A stretch of 64,000 nt of DNA from an uncultured bacterium (GTDB taxonomy: Bacteria; Verrucomicrobiota; Verrucomicrobiia; Chthoniobacterales; SZAS-18). The position numbers were made by a program, and so were the translations under genes. Below, in pieces: positions 41,637-62,200 of the stretch (positions are counted from its first letter, which is position 1; each line of letters begins with the position of its first letter). The notes under the pieces were generated by a model. The model did no database searches. It saw only the letters and a list, made by a program, of their open reading frames with translations, and was not told the origin of the DNA. The DNA is taken from assembly GCA_963795895.1 (NCBI GenBank), contig CAWCJJ010000030.1, positions 35,356-99,355 on the forward strand, in the 5' to 3' direction.

Positions 41637-43299
<1,663 letters not shown>

Positions 43300-43463
43300 T
43301 CAAGCCAAACATTTCGAGCGTGAGTGTTAATCAGTTGCAATCACTGCATAATTTACACTGTAAAGAAGCAATCTCTTTCCACGCTGACACCAGTGAGCGC
43401 CGTTCTTTGAACATCTACCCGGTTCATGCGTCATTGGACGTAGCTTTTGTTCCAAACCCCCGT

Positions 43464-45038
43464 ATGCCGACCTTCTCCTACCGCGCCCGTGATGCGCAGG
43501 GCAACCTTGTGCAGGGAACCCTCGAATCACTCGACCGCGCCTCCGCGATCCAAGCCATCGAGCAAAAGCGGTGCGTCCCCGTGAAGATCGAGCCGCTGGC
43601 ACTCTCAGGGACCGCCACGTCTCCCACGTCCCAACCACCGACCGCAAAAGCATCTTCTCCCTCTCGCCGCACCGACAAGCGGGAAAACCAAACCAACGCG
43701 ACCCCCTCCCTCGGCTCCAACTCCACCACCCACTCCAAACCCGTTGGCACCACCGAGCTCGCCGCCGCGACCTCCAGCCAGCGCCTTTCCCACGGCCAGC
43801 GGCTCTTCTTCACCGAACAACTCGCCTACCTGCTCTCGGCGGGGATGACCCTGGACGAAGCGCTGGGAGTCCTGGTGCGCCGCCTAAAACAAGTCGATTT
43901 GCAAAAACTCACCAAAGCCCTGCACCAGGGATTGCTCGAAGGCCGCAGCTTTTCGCAAACGCTCCGGGTCTTCCCCCGCATCTTCTCGCCCTTGTACACG
44001 AACCTCGTCATGGCCGGCGAGGCGAGCGGCGCGCTGGAGGACATCCTGACCCGCCTGGTCAGCCACCTGACCAACATGAAGAAGATGCGGGACACCGTCT
44101 CGCAGGCGCTCATCTACCCCGCGTTCCTGGTGATGGCCGGCGTGGGGCTGGTGGTAATTTTCATCACGGTGATGGTGCCGCGACTGCAAAGCTTTTTCGC
44201 GTCGAGCAACGGCGGCCCGGTCCTCCCCCTCCCCACGCGGATGCTCATCGCCGCCAACGACCTGATCGTGGCCTATTGGTGGGCGGCGGCGGCGGCGGTC
44301 ATGCTGGGGATTCTGATCTTCAAGCTGGCCACGCGTTCCGCCGAGGGGTTGATGCGCTGGGACCGTTTCCGCCTGTCGATCCCCGCGTACGGCTCGGTGG
44401 TGCGCTTCCAGTTTTACGCGCAGTTCGCGCGCACGCTGGGCACGTTGTTGCAAAACGGCGTCACGCTGCTGCGCGCCATCGAGTTGCTGGAGGACATGTC
44501 GGGCAACACCTATTTGAAAGCGCGCATGGCCGAGGCGCGGGCGTCATTGGTGGACGGCTCGAGTTTGTCGAACGCGCTGTCAAAGCACAAAATCTTCCCC
44601 GAACTCTTCGTGGACATGATGGCGGTCGGAGAGCAGTCCGGCAAATTCGCCGAGACGATGCAGATGATCGCGACCGTGTACGAACGCGAGCTGGACCAGC
44701 GGGTAAAAGCCGCGACGGCGGTGATTCCGCCGATCATCATTATCGTGATCGCGGTGCTGGTCGGGGCGGTGGTGTACGGCATCATCAGCGCGGTGTTCAG
44801 CGTGACCTCCGGACTGCAGCACAGCGCGCGGTTGAGTGTTCTTCTGTGTCTTTCTGCAGGTCTGTTGTACGTACAGGCTATCAGTCCTTGTTTGCAGGTT
44901 TACAATTTAACCCCAACCATACCTGATATCTTGAGGGTCGTCAGGATCATCTACAAATACGTGCATAACGTAACCTCCATACGGCCAATTTCCCGAGATC
45001 AGCGCATCCCGATTATTTGGAAAGGAGAATTGAAATAA
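43464..45038 (+). CDS. GspF/PilC family inner-membrane platform protein with a non-native C-terminal extension
   Basis: MPTFSYRARDAQGNLVQGTLE start and two GspF-type repeats (LAYLLSAGMTLDEAL.., FARTLGTLLQNGVTLLRAI..). After ..AVFSVTSGLQ (~44820) the ORF runs on ~70 codons into AT-rich sequence antisense to gene 44907..45533. Confidence 0.82.
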   Translation: MPTFSYRARDAQGNLVQGTLESLDRASAIQAIEQKRCVPVKIEPLALSGTATSPTSQPPTAKASSPSRRTDKRENQTNATPSLGSNSTTHSKPVGTTELAAATSSQRLSHGQRLFFTEQLAYLLSAGMTLDEALGVLVRRLKQVDLQKLTKALHQGLLEGRSFSQTLRVFPRIFSPLYTNLVMAGEASGALEDILTRLVSHLTNMKKMRDTVSQALIYPAFLVMAGVGLVVIFITVMVPRLQSFFASSNGGPVLPLPTRMLIAANDLIVAYWWAAAAAVMLGILIFKLATRSAEGLMRWDRFRLSIPAYGSVVRFQFYAQFARTLGTLLQNGVTLLRAIELLEDMSGNTYLKARMAEARASLVDGSSLSNALSKHKIFPELFVDMMAVGEQSGKFAETMQMIATVYERELDQRVKAATAVIPPIIIIVIAVLVGAVVYGIISAVFSVTSGLQHSARLSVLLCLSAGLLYVQAISPCLQVYNLTPTIPDILRVVRIIYKYVHNVTSIRPISRDQRIPIIWKGELK

Positions 45039-45533
45039 ATGTGTGAACCCAGCCTCGGTTAATGTTCTTCCTTGGCGGCGGATCGAAACTTTGTTATGCC
45101 AGTAGAATGGGTATCCGCCCATTTTGCTGTTGTGGTAGATGTTTGAATCCAACCATCCATCTTCATCTCTCTCTTCAGGGTCCAACACAAGGGCCTTTGA
45201 GGTAAGCGGCGAAATCAGTGTGGATTTTACCCGGGATCGAATGGACTTGCCGTGTACTACAAATTGGATCAATGGGGCATCCGCTTGCGAATAGATTGTG
45301 CCGCTATGTTTGGGGAGAGATCTGTTTGATGCAGCCCTCTCCTCGAAGGAATTGAAGATAGATATTTCTTTGTCATCTCCATTCAGCTTCAAGGTTGCGA
45401 AGTATTTGGTGCATGGGAATACTTGCGCCGGCATAACGCCCGCCGGGGGAAATCCTCCGATTCGATTTCCTTCCTGCGAATCCGATGCGAGTATCCGGAT
45501 GGGACGACAGAACGCCGCAAAGTCTGTTGGCAT
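44907..45533 (-). CDS. YwqG/DUF1963-like protein, paralog 3
   Basis: NRIGGFPP.., SKMGGYPFYWHN and HLFQFSFPNNRDALISGNWPYGGYVMHVFV are the same three blocks as in 48064..48699 and 53737..54370. The gene is AT-rich. Confidence 0.6.
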   Translation of the reverse strand: MPTDFAAFCRPIRILASDSQEGNRIGGFPPAGVMPAQVFPCTKYFATLKLNGDDKEISIFNSFEERAASNRSLPKHSGTIYSQADAPLIQFVVHGKSIRSRVKSTLISPLTSKALVLDPEERDEDGWLDSNIYHNSKMGGYPFYWHNKVSIRRQGRTLTEAGFTHLFQFSFPNNRDALISGNWPYGGYVMHVFVDDPDDPQDIRYGWG

Positions 45534-45576
45534 GTTTATTTTACCAATGGCAGTAGATTCTTGCTATTAACCGTTG

Positions 45577-46612
45577 CGAAAGTTCCGGCATGTTAAACCA
45601 AGGCGTAACGGGTGCCATCCTAAAGAACGACCTCACCAGTTCCGTCTCGGCTTGTACGGCGCTCATGATGGAGAGTGTGGTCGCCCTCATTGTCGCCTTG
45701 CAATCGATCGAGAGCTATCCCAGCCTTTGCTTGAGATGGTTCCAGACCTGCTCGTCCGGGTTGAGGTCCGGCGAGTACGCCGGCAGATGGGCGAGGTGGA
45801 TCTCCTCGTTTTCCTTGACGAACGCCTCCACCCGCGCCGAGCCGTGGCAGCTGGCGTTGTCGGCCACGACGATGATCGGGCGGCCCGCGTCGGCGCGCAG
45901 GTCCCGCAGAAAGGCGACGAACCGCTCCGAGTCCATGCGGCCCTCGATGACCGCGAAGCGCAGGTTCCCGCGCGGGCTGACCGCGGAGACCGGGTTGAGC
46001 CCGAAGCGGTCGCCGCTCTCCGCCACCACCGGGGTTTGTCCCCGCGCGCCCCAGGTGCCCCCGCGCGGGTGGTCGCTTCGCACGGCGCTCTCGTCCACGA
46101 AGTAGAGGTCCGCGCCGACGCGCTTGGCCAGCCGCCCCAGCTTGGGAAAGGGCGCCGCAGGTACTCCGCGCGGGCGCCGGCGTCCTGCTTGTGGGAGCGG
46201 CGCGCGGGAAGCCGGGGGGTGAGGCCCGGCTCCCCGAGCAGCCGGCAAACCGCCCCCTTGCTCAGCTCCACGCCCCTTTCCCTTTGGAGCACGCCCCGGA
46301 CGACCGCCAGCGTCCAGAGGCGGAACTCGAACCCGTGGCGGCGGGGATCGTTTTGGGTGACGGCCCCGCGCAGCCAGGGCGCACCTCCGGGGTCGCCTTG
46401 CGCGGTCGCCCGCTGCGGGGCCGGTCGAGCGGGGCGGCCCGGCCCCCGGCGCGGTGGCGCGCCAGCCAGCCAAAGAGCGTGCGCATGGGGATGTCGTTGA
46501 CGCGCGCCACGACGGCGGCGACCGCGTTGCTGCGCCGCTCCAGCAAGATCGATTGCTTCGGGTCCATTTGCCAGTAGCATAACGGCTGGCGTTCAACATG
46601 CGAAGATTTTCG
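45577..46612 (-). mobile_element. IS630-family element, copy A (transposase frameshifted)
   Basis: Terminal repeats cgaaagttccggcatgttaaacc (45577..) and cgaaaatcttcgcatgttgaacg (reverse complement at ..46612). The transposase pieces are MDPKQSILLERRSNAV.. and ..YFVDESAVRSDHPRGGTWGARGQTPVV..IVVADNASCH..SPDLNPDEQVWNHLK, spread over three frames. Confidence 0.85.
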
Positions 46613-46646
46613 TAAATCGCAATGTGGAGCATTAGTCAAATAACGA

Positions 46647-47090
46647 CTACTTTACCGCTGCTGGAGTGCTCACTCTGAGCAATACGTATCCTATATCCTC
46701 GGCGATGAAAATCTTTGCGTCAGTGCCTCTTTCGGGAGCAACCCAGACGCCCGATTGAAATGTTAAGTGTTGAGGCTGGTTAATAACTCTACCCTGCTTG
46801 GAAAAGTCAAAGAAGTTCAGCGTATTGATCATGGTCACATGATCTTTTTCCAAAGACCAATTCCCAAAGTTTTTATAAAGAGAATTAGTTCTTAACTCGT
46901 AATTCTTTCTATCGTGAAAGAGTTCTTGCTTGTAAGTTGAATTGTCATCCAGCAACCATGATTCAATTTCTCCAGATTTATACATGTACAAGTACTCTCC
47001 ACTCACCTCCTTGGTCGTAAGGGGCGACAACTCGCAGCTATTAAGCAACAAAGCGCATAATAACAACATCAAAAGTTTACGGGAATGCAT
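46647..47090 (-). CDS. lipoprotein, candidate immunity protein
   Basis: Signal plus lipobox LLCALLLNSC. Very AT-rich. It lies immediately downstream of the secreted toxin candidate. Confidence 0.6.
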   Translation of the reverse strand: MHSRKLLMLLLCALLLNSCELSPLTTKEVSGEYLYMYKSGEIESWLLDDNSTYKQELFHDRKNYELRTNSLYKNFGNWSLEKDHVTMINTLNFFDFSKQGRVINQPQHLTFQSGVWVAPERGTDAKIFIAEDIGYVLLRVSTPAAVK

Positions 47091-47135
47091 TTGAAACAGG
47101 AGTTATAATGGAAGGATCAACTGGCACAGTGACGT

Positions 47136-47830
47136 TCAAGTTGTAATTGGTTTAGATTGTATGCATTGGTCCATCTGTACCAAATGGATTATCTCCAGCA
47201 CAGATGAACCGTAACTTATAATATGCGGAATAGGCGGCAAGTGAGTAGCCGAAGTTGCACTTAGATTATCTGTTAGCTGCACATTCACGCTAGCGTCAGT
47301 ATGGTCAGCATTTGAAAAACCAATAAAAGTACTCACTCCGGCAATGCTACCCTGAAGAGCGCGGCAGGGTTGCTGCCCAATGCGTCTCCCGGAAAATCAA
47401 CAAAACCATAATAGAGTGGGTTCAAATCGTCTAACCTGCGTCCGGTTGGAACCGATTCACTGAGGTGGTTCTCATCTGGATTTGCTGAATTTAGAAGACC
47501 GCTCATGGCTGCTCTTTTGGGAGCCAGTCTGAACATAGTCCGATTGAATCATTTGTTGGCCCAGCACACTTGTTTCATCAAAAGTGCGAGTGTCTGAGGG
47601 TCCTGTTCCCGTAGTCCATTCGTAGAACACCTGATTAGCAGTCACATGTTCATCATCCGACCATTTGGTCCAGTTGCCGCCCGCCCGCCGGGCCCAGCGC
47701 GCGGATCGCGTCGTGGTAGTCCAGCGTGCCGTCGGCCCGCCAGGCGAGCCTCGCGCAGCGGCTCCCCCCAGCCCGGCAGCGCCGTGGCCACCAGCCACAA
47801 CAGCAACAGAACAAAGCGCGCGATTGACAT
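47136..47830 (-). CDS. small Sec-leader toxin candidate (unknown C-terminal domain), several frame changes
   Basis: It starts with MSIARFVLLLLWLVATALPGWGEPLRE, nearly identical to the leader of the RHS protein at 53574. It continues across frames as ..DGTLDYHDAIRALG.., GNWTKWSDDEHVTANQVFYEWTTGTGPSDTRTFDE.., ..LNSANPDENHL..LNPLYYGFVDFPGD.. and ..STFIGFSNADHTD.. Confidence 0.5.
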
Positions 47831-48063
47831 CCGGGATTCTAGAGTTCGGGCCACCGTTCAGGGGAGGTCTTCCAGCAGGTTCATTGTGTACACACCCTAA
47901 GTTCGATTTTATCCATTTTCAGAGACGCACGCCACTGGAGAACAATTTGTAAGACGGAAGTTATTGCAGGTCGCGCAAAAAAGACATCCATAAATTCCCG
48001 GCGGCTGGCGCGCAACGACTTGCGCCTCCTCGGGGGCGGTTGTGAAAATTGGATAAAGTCAAG

Positions 48064-48699
48064 CTAAGCCCAGATATATTTGAATTCGGTCGTCTCGCCT
48101 ACGATCTTTACGAATAGATGAAAAATCATTAGACCAAATGGCCAATTTACATCAAGAAGTGTATCCGCGTTTCCTGGAAAAGTTAACTGAAGTATGTGAA
48201 CATACCCAGCTGAGGTGATCTCGTTCGTAAGCGCGTAAGCATATGATCCAGCATCCTCAAAATAAACGTCCCCGCCTAATTTACTACCAGGCCATTTTGA
48301 TTCCGGGTCGTGCGGATTGAGATCCTTGATAGCAGACCCAACCCTTAAGCGGTGCGCCGGTATAGATGAAGCTAGTTGCTTATCACGCGATCTCACTGAG
48401 TGAGGATGAACAACCATCTGAACAAATGGGCTGTTAGAACCATGAATCTTACGACAGTTTGTCCAACTGCTATTTACGTCTGAAGCAATTGGAGAAAGCC
48501 AGATAAAGAGGGACAACTCATTCTTATGGAACCAAGGTATCGTCAATAAGTACTCAGACCCTTCTTTTCGTAATTTTTCAGGTTTGACATTCACCGGAGC
48601 ATTACCTCCAATACGTGGTCCAAGGTCTCGATCGATCTTTGTGATAGTTAACGGCCTGCATTTACCCTGAACAAAATTTATTTCATTAATCAATTGCAT
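48064..48699 (-). CDS. YwqG/DUF1963-like protein, paralog 1
   Basis: GPRIGGNAPVNV, GSKLGGDVYFEDAG and HILQLTFPGNADTLLDVNWPFGLMIFHLFV. This is the [SK]-x-GG ... LLQ-like ... W-x-G pattern of the YwqG family. It is an intact, AT-rich, 211-aa ORF. Confidence 0.6.
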   Translation of the reverse strand: MQLINEINFVQGKCRPLTITKIDRDLGPRIGGNAPVNVKPEKLRKEGSEYLLTIPWFHKNELSLFIWLSPIASDVNSSWTNCRKIHGSNSPFVQMVVHPHSVRSRDKQLASSIPAHRLRVGSAIKDLNPHDPESKWPGSKLGGDVYFEDAGSYAYALTNEITSAGYVHILQLTFPGNADTLLDVNWPFGLMIFHLFVKIVGETTEFKYIWA

Positions 48700-48778
48700 A
48701 GGACTCCTAATCTAGCAGCGTTAGCCATTGAGTCGTTCAGGAATGTTTCAACATGATATTCTGGAACTCCCGCCCTAA

Positions 48779-49219
48779 CTACAATGCCGTCAGGTAATTC
48801 GTAAAATGTTGACCATTAGTGTCTTGCGGATACACGACTTTTTCTGCGGTCTTGTGCCATTCCGACCGCCTGAGGTGTTTTTCCGCCATTTTCCTACTTT
48901 TTGAGGTCTGCGGACGGGTTTCAACCCCAAATTCACCAATTACGGCCTTAAATTGAGGCAAATCGTCCTGTTTATCCTCGCTTCTCCCTCCTACAAGCGA
49001 CCAATTACCTGACGGCATTGCCGTTAGGGGACCGGGCATTTTGAGGAACTCAAGGCCGCAGCGAGGGACATACTTATCTGCGAAGCGCGAAGAATTGAAA
49101 CCAATGATCTGAATCCAACTGCCTTCTCGCCGCAACAACTCGCTTCCAACCTGTCGCCACGGTGGGCGCAACATTGGTGCAAATGACTTCACTACCTTGC
49201 TCAATTCGCCAGATTTCAT
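48779..49219 (-). CDS. DUF4304-like hypothetical (immunity-type) protein
   Basis: The N-terminus VVKSFAPMLRPPWRQVGSELLRREGSWIQIIGFNSSRF.. resembles the DUF4304 pattern. The gene is AT-rich. Confidence 0.4.
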   Translation of the reverse strand: MKSGELSKVVKSFAPMLRPPWRQVGSELLRREGSWIQIIGFNSSRFADKYVPRCGLEFLKMPGPLTAMPSGNWSLVGGRSEDKQDDLPQFKAVIGEFGVETRPQTSKSRKMAEKHLRRSEWHKTAEKVVYPQDTNGQHFTNYLTAL

Positions 49220-49242
49220 GGGTGAATCACAGTAGTTGGAAC

Positions 49243-49288
49243 GGTGGGCGCAAGCCCCGCTTGCGCACTATGTCCTATGAAGTTTAAT
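49243..49288. mobile_element. orphan terminal fragment of the IS5/DDE_Tnp_4-like element
   Basis: gcgcactatgtcctatgaagtttaa matches the right end of the complete element (gcgcactatgtcctatgaagtcta at 57792..57815). No transposase is adjacent. Confidence 0.7.
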
Positions 49289-49317
49289 GGCATTGCGTCT
49301 CTAATAAACGCTTGCCC

Positions 49318-49580
49318 TCACGAGTTATTCTGCCAAGTTTCCAAGCACCCACCACACACTACCTCAAGTCGTTCAAGAAAGGACTCAGACTCGTCTTCCC
49401 CTTCGAGCGCGTCCCACACCCTCTTACACGAATCGCACAGCCACATGCGTCCAAGCAGTACTCGATTGCCGGAAACGGGATCATTGTGAATTCGCTTGTT
49501 GTCGAGTGACCTGCCCGAATGTGCTTGCAAACGAAGCTCGCACCCTTTTGTTCATGGATTAGGCATTGAAATATCGCCAT
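49318..49580 (-). CDS. small Cys-rich hypothetical protein (one frameshift inferred)
   Basis: MAIFQCLIHEQKGASFVCKHI.. in one frame and ..WLCDSCKRVWDALEGEDESESFLERLEVVCGGCLETW in the next. The paired CxxC motifs suggest a zinc ribbon. Confidence 0.3.
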
Positions 49581-49903
49581 CAGTTTCTCCCGAGTTGAAG
49601 TTTGATGCAAGTTCGCAGGGCAACATTGCTCGCGGGAATATCCGCGCCTCCTGCGTGCAAGATATCCGCAGCAGTGGTAAGGCAGCTATTGCTCCGCATA
49701 TTGATATTGTTACTCCACGAATTAGTTTTATTGCACGTACACGTCCCAGAGCATTAGATTTTTCACATTGGGTCCGCGTTTGTTCCTTGGCACAGAAGGG
49801 AGAGGGCCAAGCCGTAGAGCGTTGTCGGCATCCAACACAACAAAATAACCGAGCGCGCGAAGCCCATGCAAAAATTCGCTCTAAATTGGTGTTGGGCATC
49901 CAT

Positions 49904-51245
49904 CTAAGGGGATCGGCATTGAATGTTATACCCGTTGAGGGTGGATGCGGATGTCCCACCATCGCAGGTCGGGGTGGCTGCTGCAAGCGCCCCTCCAGCC
50001 CACGCGCTTGGCTGCGCCCGCCACCACGCGCCCTTTGGCGTAGGCCTTTTTGACCAGGCGCACCAGCGGCTCGCCGCCCCGCCAAGTCATCGTGGCGGCG
50101 TAGCCCAGGGCGGCGGCCGCGTCGGTGAGCGGCGCGCCGTTCCAGTGCTTCTCCAGCGCGGCCCAAACAGCTCCACCGGGTTGTACTTGCTGTGGTAGGG
50201 CGGGTAGTACACCAGGTGGAGGCGCAGGCCGCTCCGGTCGGCGAACTCCGCCATGCGCGAGGGAGGAAGCGGGTTCTGCGCCCGCCGCTCTCGGGTCCGT
50301 TGTCCAGGTTGAGGACCAACTCCTCCACGCCCGGGTGGAGGTGCCCGTGGCGGCGCCACCAGCTCTGGATGCAGTCGCCCATCAGGTCGGCGGTCTTGGC
50401 CGGGCTGGTGGAGAAGGTCAGGTCCAGCTCGCCGCCCTTGACCTCCAGGATGCCCACCGGGATGAGCTTCGCCTTGTCCTGGGCCAGGTCGTGGTCCAGG
50501 GCCGCCACCGGCCTGAGCCCGCGCGCGCGGCCCCGGCGGCTGTAGTCGCCCAGCACCACGGTGGCCTTGGTGTCCACGCTCAGGCGCAGGAACCTGCCCC
50601 CGCTCGCGTCCGCCGCCGCGTTGGCGGCGCTGGACGTTTTGGAAGATGGCGTCGCACCCGGGCGTTTTTTTTCGGGCCGGGTCTTGGCCACGGCCGCGCA
50701 GGCGGTAGCCCAGCCGGTTGAGCACCCCGTTTAAGGTCCGCTCGGCGGGCACCTCCACCGGGTCCCAGCCCTTTTCCTCGATGAGCGCGCGCCGCAGCGA
50801 GGCGGCGCCCAGGCGCGTGTGGGCGAGCGTGCCGCGCAGCCGCGGGTTGGCCTGCGCCTGGGCGTGGCCAGCGCGCGCACGTCGGCCGCCAGTTCGGGCC
50901 ACTTCTGCTCCACGGGCCGGTTGCCCCGCGCGCGAAAGGCGTCGTCCAGGCAGACGATCCCGGTGCGGTTCTCCTGTTGGCCCTGGGCGACCGAGTGGCG
51001 GTTCCACCCAGGAGCGTCTCCGCGGCCCGCGCGCCGCCGCCAAAGAGCGCGTCAGCCACCCGCCCCTGGAAGGAGCGGCGCTTGTGGCCGGTGAGCAGGC
51101 GCGAACCGTCAAGCAGCAACTCCCTGACGACGGGGGTGAGGTCGGGGTGGACATGGCGGGTGGGCCGGGCGATCATCCGCGCACCATAGCGCGCGGCGGG
51201 TTCAATGCGAACTTGAGGGATAACATTCAATGCCGATCCCCTTAG
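49904..51245 (-). mobile_element. ISAzo13-family insertion sequence (transposase frameshifted)
   Basis: Perfect 26-nt terminal inverted repeats ctaaggggatcggcattgaatgttat (49904.. and reverse complement ending 51245). Transposase fragments are RLSVDTKATVVLGDYSRRG.., LVLNLDNGPESGGRRT.. and LHLVYYPPYHSKYNPVE.., typical of the ISAzo13 DDE family. Confidence 0.85.
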
Positions 51246-51284
51246 GTGTTGAAGACTTGATGCGGAGGTGATTGTGAAGATGCC

Positions 51285-51956
51285 TTACTGAAGAAGGGTC
51301 GTTTTCAATCTCTCCCACCGCACATACTGCGCAATGTGTGGCGGCATCGGGTTGGCAACCCGGAGTTTAGCTAGTTGCGAATTAATTAGGCGCCTTGCAG
51401 CGTCTTTCATCCCCTCTATAACGTAGATTGCCGCTAGTTTTTCAATTCTTTGATCTAAGTTGAGAGGCAGTCGCAGTTTGTTATCGTTCATGCTGGCAGT
51501 ATCGGACATTGTTCTTCTCCTCTTCGGAACCAAGCCGAACTCGCTGTTCCCGCACGTCCGCGTAGTAATCTATCTCATCAATGAGTTGCAGTTTCAATGA
51601 TCCTAAGGTATTAAATCTACCAATGAGGGGCAGTAAATACTTCCTACAAGTCGTGAGAATCTGTTCGACCACGTCTCCTGGGGTTTCGGGAGAGAATTGC
51701 CACTCCATGTATGTCTTTCCCGAGCTCAGGAAATGCGCTGGAACCATGAAAGCGGAGACAAGCCTACTCCTTTCTGTTCTCCAGCAGCTTCTAAGTTCCT
51801 TAAACCGAATCGCTGCGTTGGCATTTATCAGTGCAGAGTTTCCTCGTGAACGTGCGGGGAAGCGTAGACATTTGCGATATGGTGGGTATTTGCCTTTGAT
51901 AAATTAATGTCTGCACCTCGTTTGAATCCAATTTCTGACAGCGGTTCAACCAACAT
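51285..51956 (-). CDS. DUF4304-like candidate immunity protein for the RHS toxin, two frame changes
   Basis: It starts ~27 nt after the RHS stop with MLVEPLSEIGFKRGADINLSKANTHHIANVYASP... It continues as ..MEWQFSPETPGDVVEQILTTCRKYLLPLI.. (ORF 51481..51747) and ..LRLPLNLDQRIEKLAAIYVIEG.. (ORF 51285..51533). Confidence 0.45.
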
Positions 51957-51982
51957 TCCGTCCAATTTGTTTTCTATTGTGA

Positions 51983-53574
51983 TCAAGGACCTTGCCATAA
52001 TACTTTTGCCGCACCGTTAATTGTAACTCCGGATTGTTTCCCGACTGCATTCGCGCCGCCATTCATGTTGATCCATCTGTCGCCACTGAACTGCTGACTG
52101 TCCGAACGCGAGAAAGCCCCTTCTGAAGACTTGATCTCGAATCCCCAGTTCAGGCTGCTAGAATCGGATAAAACAGCGTCATAACGTCGCAACCCAAACG
52201 GTGTACCAAAGCTCACTTCCTTATCCACGAGGCTCCATCCATTATTCAACGCGCTTTGAACAAAATCATCAACAGCTGCAGAACCCGGAGAGATCTGACC
52301 TTCTGATTTCGGGGTGAACTTTCCCTGCGCGTCACGTCCCTGCTCGATAGCTCCAGTGTATGAATCGCCTCCACCGTTTGGGCTAATCGTGTCAGCTACA
52401 AACGGGCCATTGCCTGGTTCTTTAACTGCTCCACTTAGATTTGCCGGTCGGTAATGTAGTTGCCCAGGCGCGAAGTCGCCCTCGACCACCCTGGCCGCCT
52501 GGTTCTCGGCGGTGCCGAACTCGCCGAACGCCGCCACAAAGGGGGCCGCGGCCATCGTGGCGTCGCCCCTGGCCCGGTTGAGCAGCAGCGCGGCGGTGAG
52601 CAGATCCCCGTGGTCCCAGGCCGCCCAGGCGCCCTGCAGGTCGTTTTGCACGGCCACCTGCGAGTCGTAGCCGCTGAAGGCGCGCGCGGCGTCGTACAGG
52701 AGGCCCTTGGCCACGAACTCGCCCATGCCGTCGCTCTGGGCGATCCAGTGCTCGAAGGTCCGCTCGTTGAGCTTGGGGTCGAGGGCGCCCCGCCCGGTCT
52801 CCGAGGCCACGCGTCCGTCGGCGTCGAGGCGGTTGACGGGGTCGCCGCCCGCGTAGGCGTAGAGGTCCGCGCTCGCCCCATGGCCCAGCGGGTCCGCGGA
52901 GAGTAACCTTCCATCCAGCGGGTCGTAGTGGCGCGCCCCCAGCCAGTAGAAGCCCGTGGGGTCCGGCGCCGCCCGCGCCAGCCCAGGCTCTGGGCCAGGG
53001 TGGTTGTGCCAAGGAAAGGGGTGGCCGCGCCCGCGCCCGGCAGCGCCCCGTAGCCCCCGTAGCGCGCGCTCTGCCAGGAGAGCGCCGCGCCGCCGCCCGC
53101 GCCCTCCACGCGCGCCTCCGCGTGCCCGAAGGCGTCGAGCACGTAGCCCGCGCCCGCCCCGTCGCTCTCGCGCACGCTGCCCTCCAGCCCGCCGATGCCC
53201 TGCGCGCCGCCGTAGCGCCCGTCCAGGTCCGGGCCGTAGAAGAGCCACTGGCGGGCGCCCCCGTCTCTGCGCCACCGCCACCTCCAGGAACTCCACCGCC
53301 GGGTCAAACTAACGCCGGTCGCCGTGGCCTGCGCGCCCTGCGCCGCGCCCCCGCTCGCCACCGGGGTGTGGACCGTGCGCAGCCGCCGGCCCAGGCCGTC
53401 GTAGATCGCCCGCCAGTCGTAGCCGGCATTGCCCGTGTCGCGCGCCTGCGCGCTGACCAGCCGGTCTAGCGCATCCCAGGCGAGCACCTCGCGCAGCGGC
53501 TCCCCCCAGCCCGGCAGCGCCGTGGCCGTCGCCGCCAGCCACCACAGCAACAGAACAAAGCGCGCGATTGACAT
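51983..53574 (-). CDS. short Sec-leader RHS-core protein with PD-(D/E)xK-like C-terminal toxin domain, several frame changes
   Basis: The leader is MSIARFVLLWWLAATATALPGWGEPLRE, followed by YD-type repeats (YDGLGRR, LFYGPDLDGRYGGAQGIGGL). The RHS core end is GFYWLGARHYDPLDGRLLSADPLGHGASADLYAYAGGDPVNRLDADG. A ~270-aa tail then ends with RRYDAVLSD...WGFEIKSSEG (a D...ExK nuclease signature). Confidence 0.75.
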
Positions 53575-53736
53575 CCGGGATTCTAATTTCAGAGACGCAC
53601 GCTGCTGGAGAATAATTTGCAAGACGGAAGTTTTTGCAGGACGCGCAAAAAACAACATTCATAAATTCCCGGCGGCTGGCGCGCAACGATTTGCGCCTCC
53701 TCGGAGGGGCAGCTCTGAAAATTGGATACAGTCGAG

Positions 53737-54370
53737 CTAAACCCAGATATATTTGAATTCTCTTGGTCGTCTCGCCTACGATCTTTACGAATAGATGCGA
53801 AATCATTAGACCAAATGGCCAATTTACATCAAGAAGTGTATCCGCGTTTCCTGGAAAAGTTAACTGAAGTATGTGAACATACCCAGCCGAGGTGATCTCG
53901 TTCGTAAGCGCGTAAGCATATGATCCGGCATCCTCAAAATAAACGTCCCCGCCTAATTTACTACCAGGCCATTTTGATTCCGGGTCGTGCGGATTGAGAT
54001 CCTTGATAGCAGACCCAATCCTTAAGCAGTGTGCCGGTATAGATGAAGCTAGTTGCTTATCACGCGATCTCACTGAGTGAGGATGAACAACCATCTGAAC
54101 AAATGGGCTGTTAGAATCATGAATCTTACGACAGTTTGTCCAAGTGCTATTTACGTCCGAAGCAATTGGAGAAAGCCAGATAAAGAGGGACAACTCATTC
54201 TTATGGAACCAAGGTATCGTCAATAAATACTCAGATTCTTCTTTTTGCAAGTCTTCGGGTCTGACATCCACCGGCGCATTACCTCCGATGCGCGGTCCGA
54301 ACTCTTGATCGCTCTTTGTGATGATCATTGGCTTGCATTTACCCGGCACAAAATTCATCTCATTTATCAA
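53737..54370 (-). CDS. YwqG/DUF1963-like protein, paralog 2 (4-bp insertion near the 3' end)
   Basis: About 90 percent identical by eye to 48064..48699. The insertion tctt (gaattcTCTTggtcg versus gaattcggtcg) shifts the frame just before the expected stop (53737..53739), giving the artificial run-on ORF 53309..54370. Confidence 0.6.
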
Positions 54371-54413
54371 TAGTATATGTCTATTAATACAACGGCGTTA
54401 GCCATAGAACCGT

Positions 54414-54860
54414 TTAGCTTGATGCGTTCAGGCCAATCAACTTACGAAACACTGGCATCCTCCCGGCGATATCTAGTACTACCTTTCGCAATTCTTCGTT
54501 TGAAGACACTTGTTCTGATTGACGTTTAACAGCCTCTGCCAATTCGCATTGCAGGTCTAGACTGTTGATTGGCAAATCAATTCTGTGGCTGGCGGAAACA
54601 ACGAGGTAACACCAGATTATTTGGAGCACTCGACTAAGTTCTCCCTTCTCAATAAGTGATGATACTACTTCCTGAAATGCTTCGGCAGCTTTCGCCCACC
54701 GGCATGTTGAAGCAGACCAGTTCATAAGCTGACTTGTAATCAGTATTAAATCATGTTGTTCATGGTAGGTGACACTTGGAATAAAGTAAATGCCTTCACC
54801 CAAGATCGCCTCTTTGATGTGGTTTGCGTTAAACCAATTGAAAATAATTTCGTTCTTCAT
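54414..54860 (-). CDS. hypothetical AT-rich protein, immunity-like position
   Basis: 148-aa intact ORF. Its start overlaps the end of a short toxin-like remnant that abuts IS630 copy B. Confidence 0.45.
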   Translation of the reverse strand: MKNEIIFNWFNANHIKEAILGEGIYFIPSVTYHEQHDLILITSQLMNWSASTCRWAKAAEAFQEVVSSLIEKGELSRVLQIIWCYLVVSASHRIDLPINSLDLQCELAEAVKRQSEQVSSNEELRKVVLDIAGRMPVFRKLIGLNASS

Positions 54861-55074
54861 TTAGCGTCCCTGTATAATACTGGTTTTGACTCCTGGGTCG
54901 GTTTTTAGGGGCACTATCAATATTTCCTTCGGTCAACCCGCCCCACGTTACACCAGACCCTGGTAGGAAGTACATATTTCCGCTCACTGGCAAGCGTAAG
55001 TTTGCCGCGAATGGATTTTCGACATCAATTCGTACGAGGGATCCGCTTGAAAGTTGTCCGTGTATTGTCCTTTA

Positions 55075-56125
<1,051 letters not shown>

Positions 56126-56206
56126 CACAGATCGAAATCAGCGGTTCCTTAAAGGAGGTCGTGCAGCGAATCAATTGCGCGCGCGCCTTAGAATGCTAAA
56201 ATTTGG

Positions 56207-56790: not shown

Positions 56791-57814
56791 AGACTTCATA
56801 GGACGTAGCCGCCAGAGCCGGGGCTTGTGGTAGGGGTGGGAGCATGGACATGGACGTCGTTTTCCGCAAGCCCAAGCTGCTGCGCGCCCTCACCACCCTC
56901 GATCCCGGGGAGTTCGCGCGGCTGGAGGCGGGCCTGGCGGAGGCGCTGGCCGAGCAACGGGCCCAGTGCCGCCACGACGGCGGGGCGCGCCAGCGCGCCG
57001 CCGGGGCGGGCGGGGCGACCAGCAAGCTGCCCACGGCGCGGGCCAAGCTGTTCTTTTTGCTCTTTTACTTCAAGAGCTACCCGACCCGGGAGGCCATGGG
57101 CTTCTTCTTCGGCCTAAGCCAGCCGCAGGTCTGCGAGTGGGTCAAGGCGCTCACGCCGCTGGTCAGCGCGGCGCTGGGCCGGGAACTGCTGCGGCCCGCG
57201 CGGCGCCCCGCGGACCTGGGGGCGCTGCTCGCCGAGACCCCCGAGTTGCTGCTCATCATCGACGGGGCCGAGCGCCCGGTTTGCCGCCCCAAGGACCCGG
57301 AGGCGCAAAGCAAGGACTACAGCGGCAAGAAGAAGTCCCACCGCAAGAAGAACCTGGTGGTCTCCTCGCGCCGCAAGGTGGTTTACCTCGGGCCGACCGC
57401 CCCGGGCAGCGTGCATGACAAGCGGCTCGCCGATGAAAGCGGGCTGGTCTTCCCGCCGGGCACCCTGCTGTTCAAGGACACGGCCTTCCAAGGCTACGAA
57501 CCGCCGGGCATCGACACCCTCCAGCCCAAGAGGAAGCCGCCCAAAAAAGAACTCCACCCTATCCAGAAAACCATCAACCAGATCATCAGCCGAACGCGCG
57601 TGGGCGTCGAGCACGTCATCGGCGGCATCAAGCGCTGCCACATCGTCGCGGACATCTTCCGCGCCCGCCGCCGCGACTTCGTGGACGAGGTGATGAGCGT
57701 GGCCGGAGGTCTGCACAACCTGCGGGTGGCCACCCGCCAGCCGCTTGCCGTGTAAGAAAATCGCGGCGGCGGGCGGAGCTTGCCCTCACTCGCGCACTAT
57801 GTCCTATGAAGTCT
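56791..57814 (+). mobile_element. IS5-family (DDE_Tnp_4 / Harbinger-like transposase) insertion sequence with 3-bp target duplication
   Basis: Terminal repeats agacttcataggacgtag / ctatgtcctatgaagtct. AAT flanks both sides (56788..56790 and 57815..57817). The intact transposase ORF 56844..57755 has LLIIDGAE, FKDTAFQG and VGVEHVIGGIK (DDE). Confidence 0.88.
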
Positions 57815-58355
57815 AATATAGATGTGACCCCATGGACCGATGCTCCAAACTTAGAACCGGGCGCCGATCCTTGAGCGTAATCCCTGGCGCTTCACCCTCG
57901 CGCAGCGATGTGAACTCCAGCAGCATGTCCCGGATGGAGGGGAACATGTAGTAGCTTTTCACCGACACGCCAAGGCACTGGTCCTCGTAGCCGAAGATCG
58001 AGCCGTACCTCTCCGCGTTGAGATCAATGCCGAAGGAGAAACCATTCAACTCAAACCACACAAACAGGAAGCACTGGTCGTAGTAGGGGAAAACGCCCGG
58101 CAGTTCGGGCGCGTCGAACATCTGGTTGATGTTGGCCCCGAAGGGGTCGTCGTAGAGGTAGAACTTCTGGCGCGGCGGCAGCACGAAGTGGCCGCCGACG
58201 ACCCGCTCGAAGAAGATGCGCGCGTCCTCGGGCAGCGGATGGCCGTGGGAGCGGTCCCCGGATGGCTGGTCGCCGGCGCGCAGGATCAGGTCACGGCCCA
58301 CTTCGGCGGCGAAACGCTCGATGAGTTCATCCATTGTCCTATTCGCGTGATTCAA
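57813..58355 (-). CDS. SMI1/KNR4 (SUKH-1)-like immunity protein
   Basis: ..LPEDARIFFERVVGGHF.., ..FGIDLNAERYGSIFGYED.. and ..MFPSIRDMLLEF follow the SUKH pattern. The stop codon is formed at the IS junction. Confidence 0.65.
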   Translation of the reverse strand: MNHANRTMDELIERFAAEVGRDLILRAGDQPSGDRSHGHPLPEDARIFFERVVGGHFVLPPRQKFYLYDDPFGANINQMFDAPELPGVFPYYDQCFLFVWFELNGFSFGIDLNAERYGSIFGYEDQCLGVSVKSYYMFPSIRDMLLEFTSLREGEAPGITLKDRRPVLSLEHRSMGSHLY

Positions 58356-58484
58356 CTGTTTGGACGCGTTTGCCTTCTGCCAGGCAGCTCACCGACCAGG
58401 CACGATGGAGGGCACATCGCCGTGGCCCCTCAACATAATAATGGAGGATCACCTCCCTCGTCGTCCTCGTCCTTGCGAATACCC

Positions 58485-58965
58485 TCAGTCCAGGGTGCGT
58501 TCCAGCCACTCTGAAAACGAACGCGCCACCACTGGCGCCGGCACGCTGAATGGAACCATACCCCGGCGCCCAGGTGGGCGAGATCGAGCCGAATTGTCGG
58601 CGTTCAAGGTCGATGCCGATGATCGAGCTTAGATCATCGCATTGGGCGCGCGAGCAGGTAGCAGTCGTCGAAGTGCTCGATGCGGTGGGGATTCGCGCCG
58701 GCTTCCATGATCTCGTTAAGCCCCGCTCGAAAGGCTCCGCGAGCAGCTCCCAGCCGTTGACCGGATGGTCCCCGCCGTAGAGCGGGAGACCGTCGTTGCC
58801 CCGGCTCACGTAGATGTCGCCGCCCGCGAAGGCGTGGTAGAACGCGGCCACGTCGCGGGCAGGCGTGCGCCGGGCTTGGTTCGCGGGGGCCGGCGTGCGC
58901 GGTATAAGCTTGCAGAAGGGCTCCCGCAGGAGCCGCTCGATGAGCTGATGGATCGTCATGGGCAT
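58485..58965 (-). pseudogene. second SMI1/KNR4 (SUKH)-like immunity gene, at least two frame changes
   Basis: MPMTIHQLIERLLREPF..VAAFYHAFAGGDIYV.., then ..HFDDCYLLA / DDLSSIIGIDLERRQFGSI.., then the tail PFSVPAPVVARSFSEWLERTLD-stop, in three frames. Confidence 0.5.
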
Positions 58966-59241
58966 TTCAGGTTGTATGTTGTTAGCTTGCGCGCACTCCA
59001 GTTCTGCAACTGATGGAGCGTCTGGTTGGTGACAGGTGCCCCAGCTTGCTGTGCGGCCCTCAGCATTGTCAAGGCACACTCTTCCATCTCAGCCTCCGAC
59101 AGCGCGCTCCACAAACTTCAGATTACCCATATCAACTTGAATTTTTCGACTCCAAAGCGGGCGAATTTATTGGCCAGCCATTTGTCCCCCGCTTCGTGGG
59201 CGATAGCATGGTGATACCCCTCTAGCTCTACACTGGGGAAC

Positions 59242-62200
59242 CTAACCTCTGTCCTTTGCACTCACGCTATATCCCGTATAATTCGCCTTCAACCAAGCAT
59301 CAAAATAGAAATGATGTTGCGGGTTCTTTGAGATTACTGCCGCTCCGGCTCCGTCGAATACCTGTTGATAATTGATCGTGTTGTAAACAGCACTTCGGCC
59401 TCTCTGGATTTTATTGGTACCATAAAGCATGGTTTGCCCCGCCGTATTGTGCACAAGGGCCGCCACGTCACCCGTGACTACGAAAAACGTATCGGGACCG
59501 TCAACGTCGAGGTTGAACGTCATGGTCTTCCCTGCCTCCGCCATCACCGTCGTCACCACGGGGGCGGTGCCCGTGCGGCCAAGCAGATGCATGCCTTGCT
59601 TCAAGTCGCCAGCGGGTACCGCCTTTTTCTCCGGTCCAAAACGGATGATCGAGGGTGGTGATAACGCTGCCGCCGTTGTCTTCCCGGCCTTCATCCTTCC
59701 AGCCGACGCAGAGTGGGGAAGAAGTGAAACTAAACATCCGGCTCAACACCATCTGCGGAGTGGCGCTCCCCCCCTTGGAAGGATCGTATCCCAGCACCCG
59801 GTCCCCCTTTTCAAGCATTTCAATCGCTTTGGTGGTTCCGTCAGCCATGACAACGCGCGTGCCCGCCCCAAAGCAACCCAATGGCGAGCGGCACAAGGAC
59901 CCGAGACGGCGGCGGCGCGGGCCTCGTCCGCGCTGCGGGCGACACGACCGAAGTTTATCGCCACTCCTTTTGACACCTTTTGTAGAAGCACGCTCTCGGA
60001 AGAAACCTTGGACGCCAGTTGCATGAACTTTGCCGCGGCCCCGTGCCCTCCCTTAACACCCTGCCAATCACCCCGGCCTTGGCGATCCCGGCGGTGAGCA
60101 CGCTCACTCCAACCTGCTCGCCGATGTAACCGACGGCATACCCGGCAAAATAGGCGCTGAGATAAACGGGGTCTTCGGCATCCTTGCCCAGCAGCAGGCT
60201 TAATCGATCGACCTGCGTGTTTGTGAAATCTCCGATGATCTGGTCAATCATCGCTGAAACATTGCTCTTCAAACCTTCCCAGCCCAGGTCCTTGAGCGCC
60301 GAAAAACAATGGTAGAGTTCCGACGCTACAACCCAGGGTTCGAACTCGAGTTTGAACAGAAATTTTTCCAGGTCGCCAACGGCAAGCAAGGTGCTGACGA
60401 CACCTTGCACATCGCCTTTCACGCCATCCCACAGGCCGAAAACGACTCCCTCGCCGACCGCGCTGTTGGCCGTGATGATGCCCTGCACCCAATGGAGCAG
60501 TGTTTTTGCTACCAGGCCGCGATTGCGGATTTGTGTCAGGGGCGATAACTCGGCGCTGCGCACTTGCGTCGGCACGGGATTGAAGGTCGCTTCGTCATAT
60601 GCGAGAAAGCCGAGCTCATTTTCACCGTCGTCGTAATTCTGGGCTGGCGCGGCGGGCTCGTCGTTTCTGACGATTGGGCGCTCACTGCGGGGAGCGGGTT
60701 TCGCTTGATAGGATAGATACGGTTTTGACCGGGACGCGCTCTATTGAGGGCGCCACCAACCGGACCGTTGTCATCGGGGTCCGAGGCGCCGCCTTTCCAC
60801 GCGAGAATCGGCGGCGCGGGGTCACCCGCGACGAACGCCTCGGTCGCGGTCACCAAGCGTGCGAAATCACCATCGGCCTTGAGATGACGTGCGGCTTGCG
60901 CAATCACCTTGCCATCCTTTTTCAACTTTATCGTGAAGTCGCGATCTGATTTACACAGGCGTAAAACCGTAATTTATCGCCTTCCTTAACGAAGGTGACT
61001 TCCTGCTTTGCGGCCTTCGTCGCTTTTTCCTCCCCTGCGGCGTAATTCTGCGCCTCGCGGTCGCTGAAAATGTCGCTTTCGCTTTCGTAGATCGAAGTCT
61101 GGGTGTCACCAAACAACTTTGTGTAACTCCACCGGTTCCCCCCGCACTCCATTTCGACATCGACTTCGCCGAACACATTCGGAATCGTTCCCGTGACCAT
61201 GCGGTCGCGCGAGTCGAGGTCCATCGGCAGCATCAGGACCGCGCGGGGAGACCAGCCCACTTGCTGCGGATTGCCGTCCGCGTCATCCTGGAAAATGGCT
61301 TTCTCCGCGTTGGCTAGAATCAGAGTGTCGGGGCTGATTCCCACCGCGCGCGACAGGTGCCAGTCCGTCGAATCGCTCAAGAGCGTGTTCAGGTTGGTGA
61401 TATCCCAGAACGCGTCGTCCCCGCCGGCGTTGTCGTTCTTGCCCCAGAAGGTCGCTTCCAAGCTGGCAAAACCCTCGTCCTGCGGATTAGCACCGTCGTG
61501 CTCCCATTCGATGGACTCGCCGACGATCCAGTTAAGGTTGGTGATGTCGTAGGCGCGGCCGTAACCCACCGGAAACTGCGGTGCCACGGATGAAAGCACG
61601 CCCAGGTCGATCGGGCTCGTGTCGGTGGCCGACCAATAAACCGGATGATACCGCGCCGTCGCGTCCGGACGGATGCTGTCGTCGCCGATGACATCAATGT
61701 CCGCGTAGCCGGCGATCCCGCCCGACTTGTTGATGGCTTCCGGGGTTGCTGTGCAAGCCCGCCGGCAGCACGCCCAGGTCCGTCAGGACCGGGTAGCCGT
61801 GCAAGGAGAAGGTGGCCGTGCCCGGTTCGTAGCGAAAGGCGTGCGTGGGCTCCGCGTTGTTGAAGAGCCTGGCCTTTTGAGTACGCTGCTCCAGGCTGTC
61901 GCCGGTCACTTCGGAGGCGCTGAAGGGACGGGCGGCATAGCCCGCGATGGTGTCCAATTCGCTGATGACTTTGGACACGCTGGTCAACCGCCCTTGGCCG
62001 AGATCGGCCCCGCCGTAACTGAGCGGCCCGAGCCAGTCCCAGGGCAGCGTCGAAGCGGAAACGTCCCCCACGGCGGCCATGCCCAGCGAAAACCGGCTGC
62101 GCTGGTGAGCAAAACGTCGTGGGCGATGAGCGTTTTTCCAGTCGTTCCGTAGCCGCGGCCGTTGCCCCGTTCCGATGATTTTGCCCATTGCAGAACGCCG

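Follow-up and report, generated by a model that had tools for sequence, protein, structure and literature searches.

Polymorphic toxins of the RHS and pretoxin-HINT (PT-HINT) type have immunity proteins, reportedly described by Zhang et al. in 2012, and an overlap of a gene's start codon with the stop codon at the toxin 3' end is the classic toxin-immunity arrangement. YwqG/DUF1963 proteins have lacked a function since the structure of YwqG (1PV5) appeared; the gene presumably lies beside an LXG toxin operon in Bacillus subtilis, and a toxin-immunity link for DUF1963 or YwqG was not found in the searchable literature. Here we examine three related genes, c1, c2 and c3, in a 64,000-nucleotide (nt) stretch of DNA, referred to as the window, from an uncultured bacterium of the Verrucomicrobiota (contig CAWCJJ010000030.1, positions 35,356 to 99,355). 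A sequence-only reading of this DNA had taken them for YwqG/DUF1963-like paralogs that recur beside toxin cassettes, as immunity proteins or as accessory or chaperone components. Our analysis points, with a probability of about two in three, to a divergent branch of the TYPP superfamily whose members are immunity proteins for a toxin warhead domain, here called CT-X, and whose three copies in the window would be orphans.

Members of the TYPP superfamily (TSR4, YwqG/DUF1963, PDCD2L, PDCD2) consist of two tandem all-beta repeats with a GGxP motif in each, and the second repeat has a Gln that is conserved almost absolutely (Burroughs and Aravind 2014, PMC4275035). That study proposed a generic chaperone-like role for the bacterial members, with a pocket or cleft binding extended peptides, raised a possible catalytic role of the pocket, and placed the eukaryotic members in ribosome biogenesis (PMC4275035). 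PDCD2 and Tsr4 are reported to be dedicated chaperones or binders of ribosomal protein uS5 (PMC7736825).

The three genes lie on the minus strand at 44907..45533 (c1), 48064..48699 (c2) and 53737..54370 (c3). Their homology, as originally proposed, was borne out by tblastn: c1 and c2 share 29% identity (E=1.6e-21) and c2 and c3 share 88-90%, and a search of the window with each copy gives these three places and no fourth copy. The three motif blocks ascribed to them (xRIGG, SK[LM]GG and H[IL][LF]Q...NWP[FY]G) are present as written. c1 encodes an intact protein of 208 amino acids (aa), the most divergent of the three, and c2, which has an ATG start and the ribosome-binding site AGGAG, an intact 211-aa protein identical in sequence to a public protein (P0001).

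A profile built from the three copies was used in an exhaustive hidden Markov model search of 1.84 billion representatives at 50% clustering, which found 285 related clusters at E<=1e-3, 178 of them at E<=1e-10. With few exceptions they are free-standing proteins 190-240 aa long, typically ~205 aa, with no signal peptide evident by eye; the longer members have N-terminal extensions that look like start-codon miscalls, and the extensions contain no CT-X. Pairwise identity within the family is only ~25-30%. In an alignment of 132 sequences, the (near-)invariant positions are G31-G32-x-x-P35, T53, S63, F65, H98, K140-x-G142-G143, G165, Q171 and W186-P187. The first GGxP-type motif has G31 in 128 sequences, G32 and P35 in all 132 and P34 in 64; the second has K140 in 131, G142 in 129, G143 in all and P145 in 117; and Q171 is present in 130. 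The family is under purifying selection. None of c1-c3 matched a Pfam model at E<=10 or an NCBIfam model at E<=1, and scans of close relatives were likewise empty; at the Pfam level, this formally counts against the original DUF1963/YwqG assignment. The sole Pfam model matched by more than one relative was DUF1963 (PF09234), and this only weakly, by 6 of the 132 with a best E of 0.014, which places the family outside Pfam DUF1963 as that model stands. A k-mer-indexed homologue search returned only the query protein itself, and only four proteins when given the 132-sequence profile.

To place the family genes in context, we collected loci elsewhere (designated by L numbers) from exact-protein look-ups and two hand-made degenerate DNA patterns. 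The first pattern, searched against 185,579 species genomes, gave 17 matches, 11 of them true, in Pedosphaera, Prosthecobacter, Puniceicoccales and other Verrucomicrobiota as well as in Planctomycetota, Acidobacteriota and Myxococcota; it sees ~30% of the family. The second, searched against metagenome contigs, gave 31 matches, of which 28 were true. About 35 loci had at least 400 nt of upstream sequence and were treated as informative. Nine of these (L003, L009, L035, L038, L039, L044, L047, L048 and L060) carry the family gene directly behind a CT-X toxin. Where the sequence suffices, the toxins have an RHS-associated core (TIGR03696), a PT-HINT module (PF07591) and the same ~124-aa C-terminal domain. 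A tenth pair (L033/L049) has a divergent CT-X copy upstream of the family gene (E=1e-8). Stop and start codons overlap (ATGA, GTGA, TGATG or TAATG) in eight of these ten pairs, and the gap is 3 nt in L003 and 13 nt in L038. Thus, the family gene was found directly downstream of the toxin, co-oriented with it and specific for its C-terminal domain in nine typical loci and one divergent locus, an arrangement that none of c1-c3 shows. The toxin association proposed for the window therefore holds outside it, and is sharpened to one C-terminal domain with translational coupling.

CT-X begins right after the 'VHN' motif of HINT, contains the motifs GHExLQNAW ... NPsLAL ... H ... Q, and in most members ends in PCP. 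Its invariant residues, in L009 numbering, are F17, H32, E33, Q36, W39, N52, P53, A56, H62, Q70, I90, N93 and A114. The domain lies at L003:1653-2042, L009:1091-1462, L035:1686-2063 (minus strand), L038:494-880, L039:862-1230 (minus strand), L044:81-437, L047:49-426, L048:800-1138 and L060:~320-710. It has no match in Pfam, NCBIfam or PDB; SART3 and BMIP1, which came up at E ~0.05-0.1, were rejected as noise.

Several further loci carry the family gene with a remnant of such a toxin or in a row of immunity genes. Only the last 35-45 residues of CT-X are kept before the family gene in L007, L041, L031 and, weakly, L045, and such 3' stubs are a signature of displaced orphan modules. In L018, an RHS toxin with Tox-REase-3 is followed by Imm7 and then by the family gene, and in L010 a 1751-aa RHS protein is followed by two small open reading frames (ORFs) and then by the family gene; by their gene order, both are poly-immunity arrays. 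In total, 15-16 of the ~35 informative loci are toxin-linked through CT-X coupling, the divergent copy, stubs or arrays. The closest relative of c1 (53% identity) is the L003 member, directly behind an RHS/PT-HINT toxin, and a protein 44% identical to c2 (P0004) is the L060 member, directly behind a PT-HINT toxin with CT-X. Both window subclades are thus coupled to CT-X toxins elsewhere. The window itself contains no CT-X domain or remnant at E<=1, and we therefore read c1-c3 as orphan immunity genes.

The family thus resembles the known immunity proteins of RHS/PT-HINT toxins, such as Imm7 with Tox-REase-3 and SUKH/SMI1_KNR4, in being small and cytoplasmic and in being encoded directly 3' of the toxin with translational coupling. 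Like them it occurs as orphans and in arrays, with a family gene behind Imm7 (L018) and SMI1_KNR4 beside two members. It differs from them in that it matches no Pfam Imm model and its cognate CT-X is absent from Pfam, NCBIfam and PDB. Orphan rhs/cdi modules offer a second comparison: they share with this family the 3' toxin stubs (L007, L031, L041) and the small immunity-like ORFs in a row, and the window island resembles orphan immunity islands in being rich in insertion sequences (IS), lower in guanine-plus-cytosine (GC) content and populated by decayed toxins, with the three copies lying among small low-GC ORFs. Unlike such modules, the window copies have no CT-X stub, and c2 and c3 are joined to the 5' leader of another toxin by duplication. 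The type of system, an RHS/PT-HINT toxin with a downstream immunity gene, orphans and arrays, is well known; the immunity family and CT-X would be new.

The CT-X warhead is carried behind an RHS-associated core and a self-cleaving PT-HINT module, and we propose that the family protein would bind it in the producer cytoplasm and block it, probably 1:1. The TYPP pocket or cleft is a plausible binding site, as the eukaryotic relatives hold an extended uS5 peptide there, and the conserved PCP tail of CT-X would, speculatively, be an attractive ligand for it. In the window, c1-c3 may protect against CT-X toxins delivered by neighbours, or may be relics of lost cassettes. They would have been carried along, and in the case of c2/c3 duplicated, in an IS-scrambled toxin/immunity island in which an IS630-like insertion separated c1 from its upstream neighbour.

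The relation to YwqG comes from motifs and from profile comparison. The family has both TYPP hallmarks, a GGxP-type motif in each half and a conserved Gln in the second, and the only PDB sequence that its profile matched at E<=10 was YwqG (1PV5, E=0.31). For comparison, we assembled a shallow YwqG profile from seven full-length proteins annotated 'YwqG family' or 'DUF1963', obtained by tblastn against plasmid records. With hhalign, the full family profile aligned to this seven-sequence profile over 54 columns (Prob 86.8%, P=4.3e-6), with Q171 on the Gln of the YwqG LLQ; with permissive extension, both GGxP motifs are collinear. The C-terminal halves alone gave 94.2% (P=1.2e-7) against the same shallow profile. 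The family C-half also resembles the YwqG N-half (P=2.5e-4), as expected from internal duplication. Both families are all-beta, with a GGxP motif per half and a Gln that is almost invariant behind the second motif, and they share the order HK-x-GG-x-P ... h-LLQ-h-D ... W-x-x-G ... F-h-F in the C-terminal repeat. In contrast, the family is ~60 residues shorter (205 vs 250-270 aa), and its C-terminal block reads W-P-F-G...F-H where YwqG has M-W-G-D-x-G...F-F.

PDCD2 and Tsr4 belong by motif definition to the same superfamily and provide a precedent for specific one-to-one client binding. They differ in that their client is a ribosomal protein, not a toxin, and in carrying MYND or low-complexity inserts, and no direct sequence similarity of the family to PDCD2/Tsr4 was detected. 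AlphaFold2 predicted c2 from the 132-sequence alignment with a predicted local distance difference test score (pLDDT) of 94.8 and a predicted template-modelling (TM) score of 0.91, as nine strands and one helix; on a 3-sequence alignment, the pLDDT was only 33. Foldseek of the model from 132 sequences returned no significant match in PDB or BFVD, and lipocalin matches were rejected as noise (TM about 0.15). Two 1PV5 fragments used as queries for full-length YwqG returned only truncated pseudogene products. We conclude that the second repeat is probably TYPP-like, whereas TYPP identity of the whole fold is unproven. The family may be one of the 'narrow bacterial families 2-4' of PMC4275035 or a seventh family.

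The copies in the window bear marks of duplication and decay. An ORF starting MSIARFVLLL, a Sec-like leader by eye, lies 3' of each of c2 and c3 on the minus strand; the two ATGs are at 47830 and 53574. These regions form a segmental duplication of ~1 kb, ~91% identical, identified by self-blastn and alignments: copy A (47740..48740) covers c2, the spacer and the toxin leader, and copy B (53476..54417) covers c3, the spacer and the first ~100 nt of an RHS toxin. That toxin, T1 (51983..53574, minus strand), is a short polymorphic toxin of the RHS type whose reading frame changes at least three times, the gene being either a pseudogene or error-ridden. Its Sec-like leader (by eye) is followed by YD repeats and an RHS-associated core (TIGR03696 Rhs_assc_core, 44.7 bits against a cut-off of 32.5), and the protein is 38-68% identical to the L003 toxin; its unclassified C-terminal domain has a PD-(D/E)xK-like motif by eye and no Pfam match. 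Behind c2, only a remnant is found (47130..47830, minus strand), in which the same leader runs into scrambled toxin fragments of low GC content that form no continuous frame. Thus, of the two copies said to precede a Sec-leader toxin, both precede the leader, and the sequence behind them leaves one genuine, broken RHS toxin, that behind c3.

The proposal that all three copies are intact holds for c1 and c2 and fails for c3, a decaying copy ~90% identical to c2. The start ATG of c3 has become ATA and its ribosome-binding site AGGAG has become AATAG. A 4-nt insertion (AAGA) eight codons before the stop causes a frameshift by which the conserved last C-terminal strand is lost and the ORF extends to 53309; the actual open frame is 54370..53309, a 349-aa product in the public annotation. 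F193, kept in 111 of the 132 relatives, is Ser in c3. The dN/dS ratio between c2 and c3 is 0.29 over 201 codons, and hence both were under selection until recently and the disabling lesions of c3 are recent. c1 and c2 look functional and c3 looks freshly disabled. Frameshift-split members also occur elsewhere, at L005:910-1571 (a Pedosphaera metagenome-assembled genome, MAG) and L034:2752-3506, so that decay of orphan copies is not unique to c3.

A number of points weigh against reading c1-c3 as orphan immunity proteins of TYPP type. Immunity is inferred from gene position and from nothing else, and no copy in the window lies behind a toxin; c2 and c3 precede Sec-leader RHS ORFs, as an accessory gene would. 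Roughly every second informative locus lacks a nearby toxin, and some family genes occupy housekeeping positions, after an rsmB-like gene (L001), rpoA-rplQ (L016) or recR (L061). The DNA patterns sample ~30-37% of the family, so the locus tallies are biased. The TYPP homology comprises only ~55 aligned columns; the family N-half is not significantly similar to either YwqG half by hhalign (P ~0.02-0.03), with only the GG motif aligning; and c1-c3 have no Pfam DUF1963 match. Foldseek of the c2 model found no PDB match at E<=1e-3, and 1PV5 was outside its top 50, where TM is ~0.15, so that the structural comparison suggested for YwqG did not bear out the kinship. Of the kinship originally claimed, the hhalign scores and TYPP motifs stand, and the N-half and fold are unconfirmed. 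Finally, the invariant polar residues H98, K140, H168, Q171, D179 and H194 are unusual for a fast-evolving binder, and a catalytic or ligand role is possible.

Such a role could take the form of enzymatic or ligand-based immunity, in which a pocket of Q171, H168, D179, H194 and K140 undoes or intercepts the product of CT-X. Tri1 and DarG-type immunity proteins are precedents for enzymatic reversal. The many polar residues that are invariant despite pairwise identity of ~25-30% would fit, the many solitary copies in non-toxin contexts would suit broad protection, and Burroughs and Aravind raised a possible catalytic TYPP pocket (PMC4275035). We nevertheless consider this version of immunity unlikely, because TYPP domains are without catalytic precedent and because the characterised eukaryotic members are reportedly binders (PMC7736825).

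The upstream position of c2 and c3, 162-233 nt from the leader ATG, together with the ~1-kb duplicated unit that joins the gene to the toxin 5' end, would also suit an accessory protein, chaperone or adaptor of Sec-leader RHS toxins, encoded by a co-transcribed upstream gene and helping to fold, stabilise or export the toxin. Eag/DUF1795, DUF4123 and Lap proteins serve other toxins as chaperones or adaptors; Pfam and NCBIfam scans found no sequence match of the family to these families. An RHS fragment also lies downstream of the family gene in L059, the only downstream toxin sequence apart from that at c2/c3, and the TYPP superfamily was proposed to be chaperone-like (PMC4275035). However, across the ~35 loci the recurrent partner is upstream, not downstream, of the family gene. 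It is defined by its C-terminal warhead whereas its N-terminal and RHS parts vary, and the stop/start overlap is with the toxin 3' end. In L003, the family gene sits behind a toxin whose RHS part is homologous to T1, and a Sec-exported toxin needs no dedicated cytoplasmic adaptor. Gene position thus favours an immunity gene over a chaperone, and the accessory role that had been left open for these genes is quite unlikely, immunity being favoured by the position behind CT-X. For c2 and c3, segmental duplication and IS-driven scrambling are the best explanation of a location ahead of the toxin.

Very unlikely is a housekeeping TYPP-type chaperone with no part in toxin conflict, brought next to toxins by hitch-hiking in mobile islands: operon-like positions after rsmB-like, rplQ and recR genes and the action of eukaryotic TYPP proteins in ribosome biogenesis (PMC4275035) would suit it, but nine independent cases in which the gene is coupled, by stop/start overlap, to a single toxin domain, the CT-X stubs kept by orphan copies, the sporadic spread (11 true matches in 185,579 species genomes, with a pattern seeing ~30% of the family) and the low-GC island context of the three window copies all speak against it.

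If the immunity reading of c1-c3 is correct, an immunity family of at least 285 clusters in Verrucomicrobiota, Planctomycetota, Acidobacteriota and Myxococcota is missing from Pfam and NCBIfam, and its cognate ~124-aa toxin domain is likewise uncatalogued. It would also give a testable function to a bacterial branch of the TYPP/YwqG superfamily, whose bacterial members are without an assigned role while the eukaryotic ones are dedicated chaperones, and the CT-X/immunity pair is small (~125 aa + 205 aa). Tentatively, and at a little less than even odds, the divergent TYPP/YwqG-like fold would be an unrecognised immunity family that neutralises an undescribed CT-X released by a PT-HINT module, and by extension bacterial YwqG/DUF1963 proteins may generally be toxin-binding immunity or holding factors that act through the Gln pocket.

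At the other informative loci, the neighbours are housekeeping genes or unrelated; SMI1_KNR4 immunity genes and integrases occur twice each. Operon-like housekeeping spots were seen at L016:258-2682 (a Puniceicoccales MAG), L001:6787-8705 (behind an RsmB-type methyltransferase gene, with stop/start overlap) and L061:2377-3691. This adjacency is curious since eukaryotic TYPP proteins chaperone uS5, and it may be coincidence. A truncated 143-aa version of the family, covering profile positions 85-207 only, occurs in a conserved neighbourhood on four metagenome contigs (L046, L055, L056, L057); it may be a stable variant with only the C-terminal repeat, or a shared pseudogene.

The window copies lie in a mixed-GC island that spans 44.9 kb to at least 60 kb and adjoins core genes, among them purA, uppS, mfd, a sigma-54 activator gene and that for type II secretion system protein F (T2SS-F). 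Its minus-strand order begins with a fragmented large toxin (Ig-like domains, PT-HINT piece 59875-59440) and two unclassified ORFs, and continues with a DDE_Tnp_4 transposase, a TPR protein, an IS630-like element (55071-56127) and a 148-aa ORF to c3. T1 (53574-51983), a frameshifted ISAzo13-type transposase (51154-49552) and a 146-aa ORF then lead to c2, which is followed by the leader-only toxin remnant (47830-47130), a 147-aa lipoprotein gene, a second IS630-like element (46616-45575) and c1. Thus, a real RHS toxin, a PT-HINT fragment and four IS copies surround c1-c3. c1 is indeed at the island edge, as had been noted: the IS630-like element lies ~40 nt upstream of its ATG, and its 3' end convergently overlaps the T2SS-F gene (43125..45038, plus strand; PF00482, E=3.6e-53), the core-genome boundary of the island.

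Several GC-rich stretches of this island had been taken for toxin genes riddled with frame changes. T1, with its frame changes, fits that description, whereas 45715-46632, 55120-56109, 49552-51154 and 56844-57755 are transposases. In particular, the supposed 73%-GC toxin at 49552..51154 (minus strand, GC 0.727) was rejected, as PF07592 matches both of its ORFs and identifies a frameshift-split ISAzo13-type transposase. Much of the GC-rich broken coding sequence is thus IS transposase, and the description of the window as holding toxin cassettes was overstated, which is a lesson for annotation. The IS630-like element at 45575..46616 (minus strand; DDE_3 transposase at 45715-46632, Pfam E=1.6e-33) is inserted between the lipoprotein gene and c1. 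Its second copy at 55071..56127 (plus strand; transposase at 55120-56109) is inverted and is interrupted by a homopolymer tract, T29A48. The transposase at 56844-57755 is of the DDE_Tnp_4 type.

The predicted 147-aa lipoprotein (46647..47090, minus strand) has an LLNSC lipobox by eye and no Pfam or NCBIfam match; it is a candidate for the immunity gene of the remnant cassette and was originally the upstream neighbour of c1. The low-GC ORF upstream of c2 (146 aa, 48779..49219, minus strand) is unrelated to that upstream of c3 (148 aa, 54414..54860, minus strand), and the small ORFs upstream of c1, c2 and c3 have no homology to one another or to the neighbours of relatives. Farther upstream, a PT-HINT segment of a further fragmented polymorphic toxin lies at 59440..59875 (minus strand), found by tblastn with the L003 and L009 toxins (PF07591, E=1.7e-5). 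Several ORFs without classification, two candidates for immunity genes (58339-59079 and 57813-58355) and a gene for a Big_7/Ig-domain protein (62470-63960) share the region 57813-64000 (minus strand) with it, and as a whole the region resembles a large polymorphic toxin locus in fragments.

The second IS630-like transposase gene is interrupted midway by a T29 run that passes directly into an A48 run (55645-55721), exactly where the alignment to the first copy breaks. Most likely this tract arose during assembly or scaffolding, and it is a caution on the sequence quality of the island. It suggests local assembly trouble, so that part of the frame changes in the GC-rich genes may be erroneous; artefacts are less probable for the lesions of c3 (a start-codon substitution, ribosome-binding-site changes and a 4-nt insertion that is no homopolymer). 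The two IS630-like copies (84% identity, inverted; 45575-46616 and 55071-56127) bracket ~8.5 kb that hold c2, c3, T1 and the ISAzo13-type element, and are a possible composite transposon or inversion substrate. A pair of 32-nt inverted repeats (94% complementary; 49901-49932 and 51217-51248, 1284 nt apart) lies around the 3' part of the ISAzo13-type transposase region; parts of the transposase reading frames lie outside the repeats, which points to a nested or truncated element. Where the T2SS-F ORF begins, in the gap that follows the purA-like gene, there is an imperfect palindrome of ~160 nt (80% self-complementary, 43124-43282).

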